Of a stretch of 64,000 nucleotides of DNA, positions 663 to 9,160 are shown piece by piece (the first letter of the stretch is position 1; the number at the start of each line of letters is the position of its first letter). Made by a program: the position numbers and the translations under genes. A model generated the notes under the pieces. That model searched no databases and was not told where the DNA came from. It was given only the letters and a program-made list of their open reading frames with translations. Location of the stretch: assembly GCF_054482525.1 (NCBI RefSeq), contig NZ_CM137006.1; one strand, written 5' to 3'.

Positions 663-2360
663 ATGAAATCCCCCACCCCTTCTCGCCCGCAAAAAATGGC
701 GTTAATTCCAGCCTGCATCTTTTTGTGTTTTGCTGCGCTATCGGTGCAGGCAGAAGAAACATCGGTAACGCCACAGCCGCCTGATATTTTATTAGGGCCG
801 CTGTTTAATGATGTGCAAAACGCCAAACTTTTTCCGGACCAAAAAACCTTTGCCGATGCCGTGCCGAACAGCGATCCACTGATGATCCTTGCTGATTATC
901 GGATGCAGCAAAACCAGAGCGGATTTGATCTGCGCCATTTCGTTAACGTCAATTTCACCCTGCCAAAAGAGGGCGAGAAATATGTTCCGCCAGAGGGGCA
1001 GTCACTGCGCGAACATATTGACGGACTTTGGCCGGTATTAACGCGTTCTACCGAAAACACCGAAAAATGGGATTCTCTGTTACCGCTGCCGGAACCTTAT
1101 GTCGTGCCGGGCGGACGTTTTCGCGAGGTATATTACTGGGACAGTTACTTCACCATGTTAGGACTTGCCGAAAGCGGTCACTGGGATAAAGTCGCGGATA
1201 TGGTGGCCAATTTTGCTCATGAAATAGACACTTACGGTCATATTCCCAACGGTAACCGCAGCTATTATTTGAGCCGCTCGCAGCCGCCCTTTTTTGCCTT
1301 GATGGTAGAGTTACTCGCGCAACACGAAGGTGACGACGCGTTGAAACAATATCTGCCGCAACTGCAAAAAGAGTACGCGTACTGGATGGACGGTATTGAA
1401 AACCTGCAGGCCGGACAACAGGAAAAGCGCGTTGTTAAACTCAAGGATGGCACTATTCTTAACCGCTACTGGGATGACCACGATACGCCACGTCCGGAGT
1501 CGTGGGTAGAAGATATTGCCACCGCCAAAAGCAATCCGAATCGACCTGCCACTGAAATTTACCGCGACCTGCGCTCTGCCGCTGCGTCTGGCTGGGATTT
1601 CAGCTCGCGCTGGATGGACAATCCGCAGCAGTTAAATACCTTACGCACCACCAGCATCGTACCGGTCGATCTGAACAGCCTGATGTTTAAAATGGAAAAA
1701 ATCCTCGCCCGCGCCAGCAAGGCTGCCGGAGATAACGCGATGGCAAACCAGTACGAAACGCTGGCAAATGCCCGTCAAAAAGGGATCGAAAAATACCTGT
1801 GGAACGATCAACAAGGCTGGTATGCCGATTACGACCTGAAAAGTCATAAAGTGCGCAATCAGTTAACCGCGGCCGCCCTGTTCCCGCTGTACGTCAATGC
1901 GGCAGCGAAAGATCGCGCCAGCAAAATGGCGACGGCGACGAAAACACATCTGCTGCAACCAGGCGGCCTGAACACCACGTCGGTGAAAAGTGGGCAACAA
2001 TGGGATGCGCCAAACGGCTGGGCACCGTTGCAGTGGGTCGCGACAGAAGGATTACAAAACTACGGGCAAAAAGAGGTGGCGATGGACATTAGCTGGCACT
2101 TCCTGACCAATGTTCAGCACACCTATGACCGGGAGAAAAAGTTGGTGGAAAAATATGATGTCAGCACCACCGGAACAGGGGGCGGCGGTGGCGAATATCC
2201 ATTACAGGATGGCTTTGGCTGGACCAATGGCGTGACGCTGAAAATGCTGGATTTGATCTGCCCGAAAGAGCAACCGTGTGACAATGTTCCGGCGACGCGT
2301 CCACTCAGTGAATCAACAACACAGCCGGTAAAACAAAAAGAGGCGGAACCTACGCCTTAA
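663..2360 (+). CDS. treA: Periplasmic trehalase
   Basis: 565 aa from ATG 663 (GGAG 9 nt upstream); signal peptide; near-identity to remembered K-12 TreA. Confidence 0.95.
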
Positions 2361-2696
2361 CTTTGCTGTATATCGAGCAATGCCATTATGTGCATAAAAT
2401 TGGCATTGCTCTTTTTTCGCCACGAAATACCAAATACCACTCTTTCTACGGTCTATGCCTTTATTTTCTTTTATTAGAGAAGATTTTAATTTTATTTTAT
2501 CAACTTGTTAATCATTACACCTCTATTTATATTTTCCCCCACTCCCCATTCTCCCTGACAATTTTCTTGTGGAACAAAGTGTTATTTAAGAAACAAGCAA
2601 ATCATTCTGTCTCTTTAGACAAATTTTGACATCAAACATGATCTTTTTCGCTATATGTGTAAGTATATAGCGGTTTTAATTATCAGGATATTACTT

Positions 2697-3719
2697 ATGT
2701 CACTAACCAGACGGAGGTTTACACAGATTCTTGCGTCGACATTGTTCCTGCATCATCTGCCGTCCTTTGCACTATCAGTCAAATTCTGGGCCTCACTGAC
2801 GCTTCCCGAAGCCCAAAACATTACACGCATCGTCAGCGCAGGCGCGCCCGCCGATTTACTATTGCTGGCTGTCGCGCCAGAAAAAATGGTCGGTTTTTCC
2901 TCTTTTGATTTTGCCCGTCAGGCATTAATTCCATTGCCAGAGCACATTCGCCAGTTCCCCAGGCTGGGACGACTCGCCGGGCGCGCCAGCACACTCTCGC
3001 TGGAAGGGCTTATGGCGTTACATCCCGATTTGGTCGTTGATTGCGGCAATACGGATGAAACCTGGATCTCCCAGGCACGGCAGGTTAGCGAACAGACACA
3101 AATACCCTGGTTATTGCTTAACGGGAAACTGGCGCAATCAGCAGAACAGTTAACAACGCTTGGCAAAACGTTAGGCGAAGAGCACCGCGCCGCAGAACAA
3201 GCCAATCTCGCCAGCCGCTTCGTTGGTGAAGCTCAGGCATTCGCCACCTCACCCGCCGCTAACCTCAGCTTTTATGCTGCGCGCGGTCCTCGAGGGCTGG
3301 AAACGGGCTTACAGGGTTCGTTGCATACCGAGGCGGCGGAATTATTAGGTTTGCACAACGTCGCGCAAATAGCCGATCGCCACGGTCTGACACAGGTTTC
3401 CATGGAAAATCTCCTGCGCTGGCAGCCGGATATTATTCTGGTTCAGGAGGCCGTTACTGCAGATTTTATTCGTCGTGATCCTCTCTGGCAGGGCGTGAAA
3501 GCGGTTGCGGAACAACGCATCTTATTTTTAAGTGGCCTGCCCTTTGGCTGGCTGGATGCCCCGCCGGGAATCAACCGTCTTCTGGGATTACGCAGACTTC
3601 ACGCCTGGCTGGATCCCGCCATCAATCGCCAGTTTAAAAGTGACATGCAGAATTACGCCCAACTGTTCTGGCATTGCCCATTAAGTGACGCCAACTATCA
3701 AAAATTGGTGGCGAGCTAA
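2697..3719 (+). CDS. ABC transporter periplasmic substrate-binding protein (FecB/BtuF-like), probable Tat signal
   Basis: N-terminal LTRRRFTQIL twin-arginine-like motif; stop overlaps next start (TAATG). Confidence 0.75.
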   Translation: MSLTRRRFTQILASTLFLHHLPSFALSVKFWASLTLPEAQNITRIVSAGAPADLLLLAVAPEKMVGFSSFDFARQALIPLPEHIRQFPRLGRLAGRASTLSLEGLMALHPDLVVDCGNTDETWISQARQVSEQTQIPWLLLNGKLAQSAEQLTTLGKTLGEEHRAAEQANLASRFVGEAQAFATSPAANLSFYAARGPRGLETGLQGSLHTEAAELLGLHNVAQIADRHGLTQVSMENLLRWQPDIILVQEAVTADFIRRDPLWQGVKAVAEQRILFLSGLPFGWLDAPPGINRLLGLRRLHAWLDPAINRQFKSDMQNYAQLFWHCPLSDANYQKLVAS

Positions 3720-4699
3720 TGAGAACCGTAAACGGATGTATTTTGCTGCTGGCAGTTATCAGTATCACTTTTGCCGCCGTAAGTGGGGCTTATCATCTCG
3801 ATATACAGCAACTGCTGGCGCTCATTCTGCGTCAAGAAAATGTTCCTGTGCAGGAACAAATTGTCTTCTGGCAAATCCGCCTGCCGCGTATTCTTGCTGC
3901 GCTGTTTCTGGGCGCGGCGCTGGCAGGGGCCGGAACCACCTATCAGGGAATGTTCCGTAATCCCTTAGTGTCACCGGATATTTTAGGCGTCTCCGCCGGT
4001 GCCGGACTTGGTGCCTGCGCGGCAATCCTGTGGGGATTATCCATTGTTTACATCCAGCTGTACGCATTTTGCGGCGGGCTGATGGTGGTCGCGGGCGTCT
4101 GGTTGATTACGCGTCGGGTGACCCGCCACGATCCGATCTTAACCCTGGTGCTGGTAGGCATTGCGTTAGGAACGTTGTGCGGAGCGGGGATATCGCTAAT
4201 AAAAACGCTGGCCGATCCTTACACCCAGTTACCGTCAATTACCTTCTGGTTGCTGGGGGGGCTGTCCACCGTGACCTTACGCGATCTCTGCTATGCTGCA
4301 CCGATCATTCTCATAGGCTCCTTGCCCCTGTTTTTTCTCCGCTGGCGCATGAATTTACTCACGCTTTCCGACGACGAAGCCCGTTCGCTGGGACTGAACG
4401 TGACACGTCTGCGCTTTGGATTAATTGTCTGCGCCACACTAATCACCGCCAGCACGGTAGCAATAGCGGGCATAATTGGTTGGGTCGGCCTGGTCGTTCC
4501 GCACATTGCCCGCTTGTTGACCGGTCATAACCATCAGCAGCTGTTGCCCATGGCAATGTGTACTGGCGCGATTCTGCTCCTGCTTACCGATACGCTGGCA
4601 CGCAGCATTGGAACAACAGAAATCCCACTTGGCATTCTGACCGCTTTTGTTGGTGCACCGTTTTTCCTGTTTTTGTTGTTACGCGGAGGTCGCCATTGA
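3719..4699 (+). CDS. ABC transporter permease, FecCD family
   Basis: 326 aa polytopic membrane protein typical of iron-siderophore/cobalamin-type permeases. Confidence 0.8.
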   Translation: MRTVNGCILLLAVISITFAAVSGAYHLDIQQLLALILRQENVPVQEQIVFWQIRLPRILAALFLGAALAGAGTTYQGMFRNPLVSPDILGVSAGAGLGACAAILWGLSIVYIQLYAFCGGLMVVAGVWLITRRVTRHDPILTLVLVGIALGTLCGAGISLIKTLADPYTQLPSITFWLLGGLSTVTLRDLCYAAPIILIGSLPLFFLRWRMNLLTLSDDEARSLGLNVTRLRFGLIVCATLITASTVAIAGIIGWVGLVVPHIARLLTGHNHQQLLPMAMCTGAILLLLTDTLARSIGTTEIPLGILTAFVGAPFFLFLLLRGGRH

Positions 4700-5454
4700 C
4701 TTTGCTTGCCGTCCGTCATGCGTCTCTGGGTTACTCCCGCCATCCGGTGCTACGCGACGTGTCCTTCACCCTGTCGCAAGGAACAATTTGTTGTCTGTTA
4801 GGAGCCAATGGTTGCGGCAAAACCACACTCATGCGCTCCATTCTTGGCGTTATACCGTTATTAAAAGGCGAGATCTTACTGGATAGCCTCCCTGTGCAGA
4901 CACTCAGCCATCGCCAACGCGCGCAGGCTATTGCCTGGGTGCCGCAGGCGCACGACGGCATTTTTGCTTTTAGTGTGCTGGATATGGTGTTGATGGGCCT
5001 GGCCCCCACCATAGGCGCTTTTTCCGTTCCCGGTAAGCAAGAACGCCTGAAAGCCACGGAGCAACTGGAAAAGCTGGGCATTTTGCATCTGGCGACACGA
5101 CGCTGGAATACGCTTAGCGGCGGTGAACGTCAGCTGGCTTTAATCGCCCGTGCACTCGTCCAGCAACCGCGCTTGTTATTACTGGATGAGCCTGCCTCCA
5201 GCCTCGATTTCGGTCATCAGATCCAACTACTGGACACGCTGGCGCAGCTCAAAAATAACGGCATGACAATGCTAATGTCGACTCATCATCCGCTCCATGC
5301 CAACGCCATTGCCGACAGCATTATCCAGGTAGAGCCAGATGGACGAGTAACACAAGGCTTACCGACCGAACAGTTAACAACAAACAAACTGGCTGCCCTG
5401 TATCGGGTTTCTGCCGACCAGATTCATCATCACCTCTCTGCAATTAGCCACTAA
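4696..5454 (+). CDS. ABC transporter ATP-binding protein
   Basis: Walker A GANGCGKTT, signature LSGGERQ, Walker B LLLDEP; probable TTG start at 4696 overlapping permease stop. Confidence 0.8.
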   Translation: MTLLAVRHASLGYSRHPVLRDVSFTLSQGTICCLLGANGCGKTTLMRSILGVIPLLKGEILLDSLPVQTLSHRQRAQAIAWVPQAHDGIFAFSVLDMVLMGLAPTIGAFSVPGKQERLKATEQLEKLGILHLATRRWNTLSGGERQLALIARALVQQPRLLLLDEPASSLDFGHQIQLLDTLAQLKNNGMTMLMSTHHPLHANAIADSIIQVEPDGRVTQGLPTEQLTTNKLAALYRVSADQIHHHLSAISH

Positions 5455-5463
5455 GGAATAATC

Positions 5464-6276
5464 ATGCTCATTGATGATATTGATTTTGCGGACCTTTACC
5501 TGCAGCAACTCAAACTGGCCCACCGCACAGAAAAAACGCCGGATCACTGGGATCAACGGGCGGAAAAAATGGCGGAAAATTGCGCCTCGCCTACGGACAG
5601 CTACCTGCAACAACTGACCGCTAAAATTGATCTGCAAGGCGCGCAGACCTTATTCGATATGGGCTGCGGACCGGGTACCGTATCGCTGGCGCTGGCTGAC
5701 AAACTCACGACGATTTATGGCGTTGATTACAGTCAGGGGATGCTGAAGGTTGCCGCCCGTCGCGCCGCCGCGCTAAAGGCAGACAATGTCCACTGGATCC
5801 AGCGCGCATGGGAAGAGGACTGGAGTGACCTGCCACGCTGCGATATTGCCGTGGCTTCCCGCTCCACTCTGGTGGCTGATATTCGCCAGGCAATGAGCAA
5901 ACTGAATAATCAGGCACGGCTTCGCGTCTATACGACTCATCTGGTCAGCACCTCGTTCGTCTCTCCAGCCATTCAGCGGGCGGCTGGTCGGGAAGTGATC
6001 GAATTACCCAACTATATCTTTGCGCTCAACGTCCTGTATCAGATGGGAATTTATGCTCACGTTGATTTTATCCGTGGACAAAATTGCCAACAGGATAACA
6101 GCACCTGGGAACGTTTTGAGCAGAACGTCAGCTGGAGTCTGGGCGCGCTTAACGACGATGAGCGTGAGCGGTTATATCGCTGGTATCAACAACAAGATGC
6201 TCGTGCCCTCGCCCCTGCCAGCCGCGACTGGGCGCTCATCTGGTGGGATAGCGTACCGCAAGAGGCACTGCGATGA
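5464..6276 (+). CDS. Class I SAM-dependent methyltransferase
   Basis: SAM-binding motif DMGCGPGTVSLALA; 3' end overlaps next gene by 4 nt (ATGA). Confidence 0.7.
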   Translation: MLIDDIDFADLYLQQLKLAHRTEKTPDHWDQRAEKMAENCASPTDSYLQQLTAKIDLQGAQTLFDMGCGPGTVSLALADKLTTIYGVDYSQGMLKVAARRAAALKADNVHWIQRAWEEDWSDLPRCDIAVASRSTLVADIRQAMSKLNNQARLRVYTTHLVSTSFVSPAIQRAAGREVIELPNYIFALNVLYQMGIYAHVDFIRGQNCQQDNSTWERFEQNVSWSLGALNDDERERLYRWYQQQDARALAPASRDWALIWWDSVPQEALR

Positions 6277-7127
6277 TTTTCCTTTCTCAGGCACAAATCG
6301 ATGCGTTACTTCTGGAAGATATCCAGGGCGGTGACCTGACCACGCGAGCATTAAATATTGGACACCAGCATGGCTATATAGAGTTTTTTCACCGTCAGGG
6401 CGGCTGCGTCAGCGGAATTTCTGTCGCGTGTAAGATGTTAACTACGCTGGGATTAACTATTGATGACGCGGTCAGCGACGGTTCACAAGCGATCGCGGGT
6501 CAGCGGCTAATCCGTGCGCAGGGTAATGCCGCAGCACTTCATCAGGGATGGAAGGCAGTCCAGAATGTGCTGGAGTGGAGTTGCGGTGTTTCTGATTATC
6601 TCGCTCAAATGCTGGCGTTACTTCGTGAACGTTATCCTGATGGCAATATCGCCTGCACCCGAAAAGCAATTCCGGGCACCCGCTTACTGGCCTCGCAGGC
6701 AATTCTGGCTGCCGGAGGACTGATTCATCGTGCCGGATGTGCGGAAACCATATTATTGTTTGCCAACCACCGCCATTTTCTTCATGACAATCAGGACTGG
6801 TCAGGCGCAATCAATCAGTTACGTCGCCACGCACCCGAGAAGAAAATAGTTGTTGAAGCCGACACGCCGAAAGAGGCAATCGCCGCGTTACGCGCGCAAC
6901 CAGACGTACTTCAGCTCGACAAATTTAGTCCGCAACAGGCAACTGAAATTGCGCAAATAGCACCGTCGCTGGCTCCCCACTGCACGCTGGCTCTGACCGG
7001 CGGAATTAATCTGACAACTCTCAAAAATTACCTCGACTGCGGCATTCGCCTTTTTATTACCTCCGCGCCTTATTACGCGACACCAGCTGACATTAAAGTC
7101 AGTCTGCAACCCGCAGCCTCTATTTAA
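6273..7127 (+). CDS. modD: ModD-like protein (nicotinate-nucleotide pyrophosphorylase family)
   Basis: 284 aa; family call by pattern recognition only; translationally coupled to the methyltransferase. Confidence 0.6.
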   Translation: MIFLSQAQIDALLLEDIQGGDLTTRALNIGHQHGYIEFFHRQGGCVSGISVACKMLTTLGLTIDDAVSDGSQAIAGQRLIRAQGNAAALHQGWKAVQNVLEWSCGVSDYLAQMLALLRERYPDGNIACTRKAIPGTRLLASQAILAAGGLIHRAGCAETILLFANHRHFLHDNQDWSGAINQLRRHAPEKKIVVEADTPKEAIAALRAQPDVLQLDKFSPQQATEIAQIAPSLAPHCTLALTGGINLTTLKNYLDCGIRLFITSAPYYATPADIKVSLQPAASI

Positions 7128-7152
7128 TTCTTTGTTAAACGGAATTTATTCT

Positions 7153-9123
7153 ATGAGACTCAAAAAACGTTATCTCTGCACAGCATTATCACTTGCCTTT
7201 ACCCAGCAGGCCTTAGCGGCTCAGGAGAGTGACTCGCTGACCGTATGGTCCAGTCCGGTATCATCAACGACGACCACCGTTCTCGATCAACCCACCATGA
7301 AGGCCCTGGATAAACAGAATGTCGCTCAGGCATTAAGTGTCGTCCCCGGCGTGGTGCTGCAAAAGTCAGGTAGCCGCAACGAAGAACAGGTCAAAGTTCG
7401 TGGCTTTGATAGTCGTCAGGTGCCGGTCTATTTCGACGGTGTGCCCATTTATGTTCCCTATGACGGCAACCTCGATCTAGCGCGGATTCTGACCAACAAT
7501 TTGGGGGCAGTTGAAGTTTCCAAAGGGTATTCGTCGCTGCTTCAGGGGCCTAATCAGATGGGCGGAGCCATTAATATCACTACCCAGAAGCCAACAAAAC
7601 CTCTGGAAGCAAATCTGGGATATCGCCAGGGATGGAGCCGTAGCCAGGACAATGCCTACGATATGCATGCTTCATTTGCCGCCAGCAGCGATCTGGGGTA
7701 TTTGCAAGTCAGCGGTAGCCAGCTAAAGCAGGATTTTCTCGGCCTGCCGCATGGTGTAAATAATGATATTGCAGGCAAACACGGCAAGATGATTAATTCA
7801 TCGGCTGATGATAAACGCGGCATTGTGAAGCTCGGTTTTACACCACGCGAAAACGATGAATACACATTGACTTACATTAAGCAGGATGGTGAAAAAGATA
7901 ACCCGCCATACAGTGGAAATAGTGGTCAAAAATCACGCTACTGGCAGTGGCCAGAGTATGACAAAGAAAGTTTTTATTATCAGGGAACGACCCAACTAAA
8001 CGATCGTTTTACCCTGAAAAGTCGGCTGTATCGCGACACCTTTGAAAATACGCTGATGATGTACAACTCGCTGGCTGATTTGAAAAATAAAAAAGGCAGC
8101 TACAGCCATTATTCCGATTACAGCGACGGTGCCGGGTTACAACTGGCAGCCGATGTGCGTGAAAACGATCTGCTGTCGTTTGCCGTTAACTGGAAAGATG
8201 ACGTACACCGGGAAAAAGGTGCGCCGCACGCCGCTTACGATCGCTATGAAGATCGTACCTGGTCGCTCGCCAGTGAATATCAATGGGCTGCTGCCGATAA
8301 TGTCGATGTCGTGGCTGGAATCAGCTATGACTGGCGCGATAGCGTAGAAGCGAAAAAACATGAGAAAGATGGCAGCATCACCCATTATGACGACAACAAT
8401 CAGTCAGCTTTTAACTGGCAGGTGATGGGGAAATACCACTTTGCCAATGAAGACACGCTGGCGCTTTCGTACTATGACCGCACACGCTTTCCGACGCTGA
8501 AAGAACGCTATACCACGTCCAAACCTGCGTATAACCAGATAGCGATTGTTAACCCGCAGCTCAAACCGGAACGCGCGCGCGGGGTGGATTTAACCTGGAA
8601 TGGTGCCTTCACGCACGACTGGGGGTTTGAGGTCAGCGTTTACTATAACCGGGTGAGTGATGCCATCCTCTCGCACAATATCGATGCCGATACCATTCAA
8701 AATCAGAACAGCGGCACGGTGGATTACAGCGGTCTGGATGCCGGTATTAAGGGGAAAATCAGCAATATACTGGATGTAGGATTGAGCTACGCCCTGATCC
8801 ACGCTGATGCCAAACGCAAAGACATCGGCAAGATAACCGATCTGCCAACGCAGACAATGACCGCATGGATGACTCTCAAACCGTGGGAGCCGTTAAGCGT
8901 AACGCTGTCGGAAGAGGCGCGTTCCTCCAGCTACAGCAACAGTGACGGTTCACAAAAAGCCGCCGGTTTTGCGGTGACCCACATTCGAGCCGATTACACC
9001 TTAGGTCATGGCTTCAGCGTCAATGCGTCGGTCAATAACCTGTTTGATACCAAATATGCCTACAGTGAAGGGTTTATTGAAGAAGGTCGCAATTTCTGGG
9101 CAGGTATCGAGTATACGTTCTGA
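7153..9123 (+). CDS. TonB-dependent outer membrane receptor
   Basis: Signal peptide MRLKKRYLCTALSLAFTQQALAAQ, plug and barrel architecture, C-terminal aromatic residue (YTF). Confidence 0.85.
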   Translation: MRLKKRYLCTALSLAFTQQALAAQESDSLTVWSSPVSSTTTTVLDQPTMKALDKQNVAQALSVVPGVVLQKSGSRNEEQVKVRGFDSRQVPVYFDGVPIYVPYDGNLDLARILTNNLGAVEVSKGYSSLLQGPNQMGGAINITTQKPTKPLEANLGYRQGWSRSQDNAYDMHASFAASSDLGYLQVSGSQLKQDFLGLPHGVNNDIAGKHGKMINSSADDKRGIVKLGFTPRENDEYTLTYIKQDGEKDNPPYSGNSGQKSRYWQWPEYDKESFYYQGTTQLNDRFTLKSRLYRDTFENTLMMYNSLADLKNKKGSYSHYSDYSDGAGLQLAADVRENDLLSFAVNWKDDVHREKGAPHAAYDRYEDRTWSLASEYQWAAADNVDVVAGISYDWRDSVEAKKHEKDGSITHYDDNNQSAFNWQVMGKYHFANEDTLALSYYDRTRFPTLKERYTTSKPAYNQIAIVNPQLKPERARGVDLTWNGAFTHDWGFEVSVYYNRVSDAILSHNIDADTIQNQNSGTVDYSGLDAGIKGKISNILDVGLSYALIHADAKRKDIGKITDLPTQTMTAWMTLKPWEPLSVTLSEEARSSSYSNSDGSQKAAGFAVTHIRADYTLGHGFSVNASVNNLFDTKYAYSEGFIEEGRNFWAGIEYTF

Positions 9124-9130
9124 TGTGAAA

Positions 9131-9160
9131 GCGGATAGCGGCATCTGTATCGCTATCCGC
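9131..9160. terminator. Hairpin between convergent TonB receptor gene and ymgE
   Basis: Perfect 10 bp inverted repeat gcggatagcg / cgctatccgc. Confidence 0.5.

Follow-up and report, generated by a model that had tools for sequence, protein, structure and literature searches.

A set of six co-oriented, tightly packed genes lies directly downstream of treA in the Escherichia coli chromosome analysed here, and its RefSeq labels include 'iron ABC transporter' and 'TonB-dependent siderophore receptor'. Directly upstream of the first of these genes, which encodes a periplasmic binding protein, an AT-rich leader contains a perfect palindrome. This raises the question of which regulator, if any, reads the palindrome, and to which metal the genes behind it respond. 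The initial annotation of the stretch (64,000 nt, referred to as the window) left the choice between an operator for a metal-responsive regulator and an attenuator hairpin. The palindrome at 2649-2672 is very probably an operator of the E. coli molybdate sensor ModE, through which the operon would be repressed. This assignment draws on how well the site matches the ModE consensus, on where it lies and how it is conserved, on the molybdenum-related genes downstream, and on modE being present in the species.

The palindrome and its leader

The leader extends from the treA stop (2360) to position 2696 and comprises 336 nt with a GC content of 31.5%, compared with 48% for the window. Its first 60 nt are occupied by the intrinsic terminator of treA, which forms the upstream limit of the regulatory region. 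Owing to this terminator, the binding-protein operon needs a promoter of its own. The inverted repeat consists of the arms CGCTATAT (2649-2656) and ATATAGCG (2665-2672) on either side of GTGTAAGT (2657-2664). In the repeat search, both arms measure 8 nt, are 100% complementary and stand 8 nt apart. From the end of the palindrome, 24 nt remain to the ATG at 2697, which is the RefSeq start in a strain that is 100% identical to the window over 2300-3800 (1.5 kb compared). A perfect 8-bp inverted repeat some 25 nt before this ATG, in an AT-rich leader of about 330 bp, is what the initial annotation had described, and the measured values agree with it on each count. A longer open reading frame from an ATG at 2655, inside the palindrome, was considered and rejected, as this ATG occurs in the window allele only and the other E. 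coli allele has ATG-TAA in a different frame.

Taken simply as an inverted repeat of 8 bp, the palindrome is weakly unusual at most. A perfect repeat of this length (loop of 3-12 nt) is present in 7.4% of shuffled leaders, and about 30 distinct 8-bp inverted repeats occur within the window. Its significance derives from the motif that it matches, not from its palindromy. The features of the leader and the operon are collected in Table 1.

Table 1. Coordinates of features in the leader and of the six genes downstream of treA, numbered from the first nucleotide of the window.
Feature	Position	Strand	Description
treA intrinsic terminator	2375..2419	+	Fully complementary 11-bp arms GAGCAATGCCA / TGGCATTGCTC, then TTTTTT (hairpin 2375-2411)
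Conserved element TTGACATCAAACAT	2626..2639	+	Putative FNR-type site (TTGAT-N4-ATCAA, 7/10) and/or sigma-70 -35 TTGACA (2626-2631)
Candidate ModE operator (Mo box)	2649..2672	.	15/16 to consensus; kept in 36/37 orthologous loci
Mo box, left half-site	2649-2657		CGCTATATG
Mo box, spacer	2658-2663		TGTAAG
Mo box, right half-site	2664-2672		TATATAGCG
Alternative -10 TATATG	2652-2657	+	20 bp from TTGACA
Putative extended -10 TGTAAGTAT	2658..2666	+	TGn + AAGTAT, inside the box
Shine-Dalgarno AGGA, binding-protein gene	2685-2688	+	From sequence; cAGGAt kept in orthologs, 7-9 nt before ATG
Class III periplasmic substrate-binding protein (Peripla_BP_2)	2697..3719	+	Pfam; RefSeq start; first operon gene
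FecCD/BtuC-type permease	3719..4699	+	Closest solved relative MolB (HI1471)
ABC ATPase	4696..5454	+	Domain and RefSeq annotation
Class I SAM-dependent methyltransferase	5464..6276	+	Kept in the cluster across all orthologous loci
ModD (quinolinate-phosphoribosyltransferase-like)	6273..7127	+	TIGR01334, 500.6 bits against a cutoff of 178.85
TonB-dependent outer-membrane receptor	7153..9123	+	Last operon gene; starts 25 nt after modD

The match to the ModE consensus

The consensus of E. coli ModE has been given as ATCGNTATATA-N6-TATATANCGAT (Rodionov et al. 2004, PMC545781), and the RegulonDB matrix of footprinted sites yields ATCGCTATATANNNNNNTATATAACGAT (PMC2700814). Compared with CGnTATATA-N6-TATATAnCG, the window site carries 15 of the 16 specified bases and a single mismatch, so that among the matrices proposed earlier for such a check (Fur, ModE, Zur and NikR) it is ModE that the box fits. 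It is the sole match with up to three mismatches in the entire window. The match is highly non-random, the chance expectation for at most one mismatch being 9.5e-4 per 64 kb and 1.7e-5 in the leader.

The modA, moaA, dmsA and napF regions of K-12 served as positive controls for the pattern, which finds exactly one site in each of these four promoter regions. The moaA site (CGCTATATACATGATTACATAGCG) and the dmsA site (CGATGTATACAAGCCTATATAGCG) each have one mismatch, while two are present in the modA site (CGTTATATTGTCGCCTACATAACG, 14/16) and the napF site (GGTTATAAATATATTTATATAGCG). All four are ModE targets in K-12, and for modA and moaA the regulation is documented (PMC11672702; PMC9171197; PMC2408646). 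Judged by its bases, the window site is no poorer a fit to the consensus than these canonical operators. The box is in this respect an ordinary example of a well-known operator class, and every feature that defines the class in sequence is present. The regulator itself is widespread in the species, with modE found in 5391 of the 5426 complete E. coli genomes. A literature search that covered sources other than the comparative ModE survey by Studholme and Pau (2003), the likeliest place for this site to be listed, returned no published account of the promoter or of the island, and no experiment on the promoter.

Conservation across orthologous loci and alleles

The DNA upstream of the binding-protein gene was inspected in 37 orthologous loci, taken from one genome per species. 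A box with at most three mismatches is present in 36 of them. The genera concerned are Escherichia, Citrobacter, Yokenella, Klebsiella, Raoultella, Enterobacter and Symbiopectobacterium, together with Serratia, Pectobacterium, Erwinia, Providencia, Affinibrenneria, Pluralibacter and Shewanella. In nearly all loci the element reads CG(C/T/A)TATATA-N6-TATATA(G/A/T)CG, and where the start is well defined the ATG follows 18-35 nt past the end of the box. The binding proteins of the locus set with the box range down to 48-52% identity. The only locus without a box is that of Citrobacter braakii ATCC 51113 (L020), where the upstream DNA is unrelated and the match to the binding protein begins at residue 37, which suggests a rearranged or truncated 5' end. 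Conservation in orthologous islands was the test on which the initial annotation had made the palindrome depend, and the palindrome has passed it.

The surrounding leader cannot be aligned even between E. coli and E. albertii, apart from the box, an upstream TTGA element and the Shine-Dalgarno sequence. An information profile of 26 distinct sites puts the specified bases at approximately 1.3-2 bits, while the N positions (3 and 22) and most of the spacer carry 0.4-0.65 bits. Bases are therefore conserved where the consensus specifies them and variable where it reads N, and the profile reproduces the consensus. The box spacer TGTAAA is more conserved among the orthologous sites than expected of an N6 spacer.

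Two alleles of the box exist in E. coli. The window allele carries C3, G9 and G15; its counterpart CGATATATATGTAAATATATAGCG, which occurs in O157:H7 and elsewhere, matches the consensus perfectly. Of the three positions at which they differ, 3 is an N of the consensus and 15 belongs to the spacer. The change from A to G at position 9 is the only mismatch of the window allele, and it also creates the spurious in-frame ATG at 2655.

Additional boxes are found inside two of the clusters. In Shewanella fodinae (L031), whose cluster is without modD, a second perfect ModE box, CGTTATATAGTTAATTATATATCG, lies at 6740-6763 directly upstream of the TonB-dependent receptor gene. This second box at the receptor gene indicates that the whole gene set travels with ModE boxes. 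A weaker second box is present in Pluralibacter (L038, 5719-5742).

Promoter architecture and proposed regulation

Among 18 orthologs, the 45 nt that precede the box share just two blocks, TTGA(Y) at -23..-19 and CA(A/T) at -12..-10. Together, these parts read TTGAY-N4-nnCAA. In Enterobacteriaceae, the element starts exactly 23 nt 5' of the box and is separated from it by a gap of 9 nt. The match of the orthologs to the FNR consensus averages 7.7/10 at this offset, compared with 4.3 or less at all other offsets. The window scores 7/10 and most orthologs from Enterobacteriaceae 7-9/10, with 5/10 in one locus (L029). The left half of the element could also be a plain -35. The FNR-like site suggests that anaerobic activation may be combined with ModE repression at this promoter.

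The -10 region is less distinct. No canonical sigma-70 -10 hexamer is located 17 bp from the conserved TTGACA, and a sigma-70 scan called no promoter at the box; its two hits at 2483-2533 are at chance level. If the FNR-like site were centred at -41.5, transcription would start at approximately 2673-2674, and TGTAAGTAT would occupy -15..-7 as an extended -10. As an alternative, TATATG could act as the -10 with TTGACA as the -35, although this pairing needs a poor spacer of 20 bp; transcription would then begin near 2664. The loci of Pectobacterium and Shewanella have a plain -35/-10 pair that stops 2-3 nt short of the box, so that the box falls over +1 there.

Molybdate binding reorients the DNA-binding domains of ModE, activates operator binding and represses modABC (PMC11672702; PMC9171197). 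At the operon described here, a ModE dimer would bind molybdate when molybdate (or tungstate) is sufficient and would become competent for CGnTATATA-N6-TATATAnCG. Since the dyad is situated between the upstream promoter element and the ribosome-binding site, the bound dimer would cover the -10 and the transcription start, exclude RNA polymerase and switch the six-gene operon off. Under molybdenum limitation, ModE would leave the box and the operon would be expressed, plausibly with co-activation by FNR under anaerobiosis. Repression by promoter occlusion is the best-supported mode of action because the box covers the -10 or +1 in every promoter model.

ModE is a dual regulator, and it activates moaA from an upstream site (PMC2408646). 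It is thus conceivable, albeit improbable, that ModE binds the box but activates the operon or has no net effect. As ModE activates some promoters, the direction of regulation is read entirely from geometry, which makes repression the most likely one. The centre of the box (2660.5) lies 36 nt before the ATG and only 24 nt away from the Shine-Dalgarno sequence, a layout that excludes an activator position on geometrical grounds: with activation from -41.5 or further upstream, transcription would begin at the Shine-Dalgarno sequence or past it. In addition, the placement relative to the ATG copies that of the repressed modA promoter, and the -35/-10 pairs of the Pectobacterium and Shewanella loci argue against activation as well. 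We infer that ModE binds the box and represses the operon from it.

Other regulators

The annotation of the genes as iron ABC transporter and siderophore receptor would favour a different regulator, such as Fur, Zur, NikR or a further factor recognising AT-rich dyads. GTTATA/TATAAC half-sites also bear a loose resemblance to those of Zur. Nevertheless, this reading is quite unlikely. A scan for the Fur box (GATAATGATAATCATTATC) reached 13/19 at best in the window, a score equalled in 21.5% of shuffles, and 16 orthologous leaders gave 10-13/19, all within the shuffle range. The remark in the initial annotation that no canonical Fur box was seen is hence supported by a quantitative scan. Zur consensus half-sites are 1 nt apart and the NikR consensus is GTATGA-N16-TCATAC; the spacing of the box fits neither of them. 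The N6 between the two 9-mers and the outer CG dinucleotides, in contrast, fit ModE exactly. Furthermore, no regulator gene is encoded in the island.

The palindrome as a possible RNA element

A palindrome in a 5' leader may also act as RNA, either as an attenuator or terminator hairpin or as an element affecting translation or stability. A scan indeed flags the site as terminator-like, with 11 pairs (G-T allowed) followed by TTTTAATTAT, and the hairpin folds at about -10 kcal/mol. The fold check proposed earlier found this value unexceptional (z = -0.95), with 35 of 200 shuffles folding as well. The stem contains just three G-C pairs, and the T-run after the palindrome is not kept in orthologs.

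The alignment of 29 sites argues against a conserved RNA structure. Eight of the ten stem pairs are without any two-sided change. The two pairs that do change correspond to a consensus N position and a spacer position, and 11 and 9 sequences, respectively, are unpaired there. Overall, 89% of cells are paired, compared with 86% after shuffling the partners among sequences, which indicates that the stem pairs because the palindromic sequence itself is conserved. In the second E. coli allele, pair 3/22 is broken by an A/G mismatch. Moreover, the motif recurs at moaA, dmsA and napF, whose promoters are quite unlike this leader, and in the best promoter model the element is untranscribed. An Rfam covariance search, which included the Moco riboswitch, matched no family; it returned nothing but a chance hit of 12.7 bits (E = 0.59) at the treA terminator. 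A function as RNA is accordingly very unlikely. Of the two options left by the initial annotation, the operator stands, with ModE as its predicted regulator, and the attenuator hairpin is not borne out.

That the box is a functionless chance palindrome in AT-rich DNA can be dismissed, despite the frequency of such repeats in shuffled leaders, as 36 of the 37 loci keep it down to about 50% protein identity within an otherwise unalignable leader and a consensus match of this quality is expected only about 1e-3 times per 64 kb.

Genes of the operon

The predicted link of the operon with molybdenum is drawn from three features, namely the ModE box, modD and the MolB-like permease. For the permease, 2nq2_A (MolB) is retrieved with E = 9.5e-66, followed by FhuB as the next best match (1.6e-51). 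The binding protein was modelled with a pLDDT of 88, and a PDB fold search places it nearest to 4pag, an uncharacterised SBP of Sulfurospirillum, to TM0189 and, at rank 4, to MolA (3psa), with which it shares about 20% identity. Iron, siderophore and haem binders follow close behind MolA; for this reason, the fold search does not identify the cargo. In the searches of the remaining components, no solved relative of the TonB-dependent receptor was found at E < 1e-10, and by the NCBIfam cutoffs no component qualifies as an equivalog from an iron, B12 or haem system. As a possible counterpart of the island, the 'fit' iron system (fitABCDE/fitR, PMC2593036) was rejected, since it has a regulator gene and is without modD or a methyltransferase.

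Two further observations concern individual proteins. The binding protein begins with MSLTRRRF (window 2697-2730), which contains a twin-arginine-like motif (TRRRF) whose R5 and R6 are invariant in 19 orthologs; this suggests Tat-dependent export. Across genera, no protein of the cluster is better conserved than the methyltransferase, with about 80% identity in Citrobacter compared with 71% for the binding protein, and the methyltransferase gene always follows that of the ATPase.

Comparison with known systems

A close parallel is the modABC operator of K-12, which has the same 24-bp dyad and consensus as the island box. The modA box ends 19 nt before the ATG and the island box 24 nt, and both stand immediately before the gene that opens an ABC importer operon. 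The same regulator is present in the cell, and the same logic, repression at sufficient molybdate, is expected for both. The two differ in what they control: the modA operator serves the type I importer ModABC, whereas the island box would govern a type II importer of the BtuCD/MolBC type along with ModD, a methyltransferase and a TonB-dependent receptor. Unlike the modABC operator, the island box resides on a variable island (~40% of E. coli), and it is preceded at 9 nt by TTGAY-N4-nnCAA, an element that is missing at modA.

In K-12, the motif of the island box recurs with one or two mismatches at moaA, dmsA and napF. The dmsA and napF promoters combine ModE with FNR, and ModE enhances expression at both. 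The moaA promoter likewise combines ModE with FNR (PMC2408646). Its ModE site is located upstream of the start and acts as an activator site, whereas the island box overlaps the core promoter beside the Shine-Dalgarno sequence. The island promoter may nonetheless combine ModE and FNR as these three promoters do.

Haemophilus influenzae has a related molybdate/tungstate importer, MolBC-A with ModD (molABC-modD, HI1470-HI1473). MolB is the closest solved relative of the island permease, and in the fold search MolA ranks near the top for the island binding protein, albeit at the low identity given above. The molABC genes and modD are neighbours in H. influenzae and form a 'secondary molybdenum transporter' (PMC3928620), so that modD is linked to transporter genes in both organisms. 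Compared with MolBC-A, the island of the E. coli type adds a methyltransferase and a TonB-dependent receptor. The regulation of MolBC-A has been described as poorly understood (PMC4031551).

A more distant case is known from Methanosarcina acetivorans, in which a ModE motif precedes 'Fe ABC transporter' operons and binding was demonstrated by EMSA (PMC12327845). There, as in the island, a palindromic ModE motif stands before operons annotated as iron ABC transporters. The M. acetivorans system differs from the island in its consensus (RTTATGT-N8-RCATAAY), in its archaeal regulator and in having no TonB-dependent receptor.

Proposed function of the island

The predicted ModE site implies that a six-gene island annotated for iron and siderophore transport responds to molybdenum rather than to iron. 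Tentatively, and with the odds leaning somewhat against it in full, the island may be not an iron system at all, but a ModE-repressed and possibly FNR-activated system for TonB-dependent molybdenum or tungsten acquisition. Its cargo would then perhaps be a chelated or organic Mo/W species ('molybdophore' or cofactor-like) that is processed after import, instead of free molybdate. What suggests such a cargo is that the island joins ModD and a conserved methyltransferase to a class III binding protein and an outer-membrane receptor. Carriers of the proposed Mo/W island are about 40% of E. coli, including O157:H7, as well as many Enterobacterales and Shewanella.

If this proposal is true, the island would be the first such Mo/W system in enteric bacteria, and ModD would gain a context. 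What the ModE box chiefly offers is a corrected functional annotation: in this common accessory island, the operator of a molybdate sensor is the one regulatory signal that can be recognised, and no Fur box accompanies it. Should ModE control be confirmed, many pathogenic and commensal E. coli would have a second acquisition system, induced by molybdenum starvation and equipped with an outer-membrane receptor. Such control would be relevant to anaerobic respiration in the inflamed gut, a setting in which molybdoenzymes are important, as well as to the role of ModD and to how MolBC-A-type importers are regulated (PMC4031551).

Distribution and decay of the island

The accessory island (2362-9099) is present in 2149 of the 5426 complete E. 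coli genomes (~40%). In K-12 (L049), homology to the window breaks off right at the treA stop and begins again at 9100; in between, an unrelated segment of 623 bp with ycgY takes the place of the island. Since this segment is unrelated to the island, ycgY was rejected as an island remnant. K-12 thus retains the final 24 nt of the receptor gene, together with the shared terminator (inverted repeat 9132-9159). In one E. coli O157:H7 genome (L045, Z1831), the methyltransferase gene contains an internal stop and treA is frameshifted, and other strains carry IS1 in the binding-protein/permease region (H14, H15). The internal stop, the frameshift and the IS1 insertions indicate that the island is decaying in some lineages.
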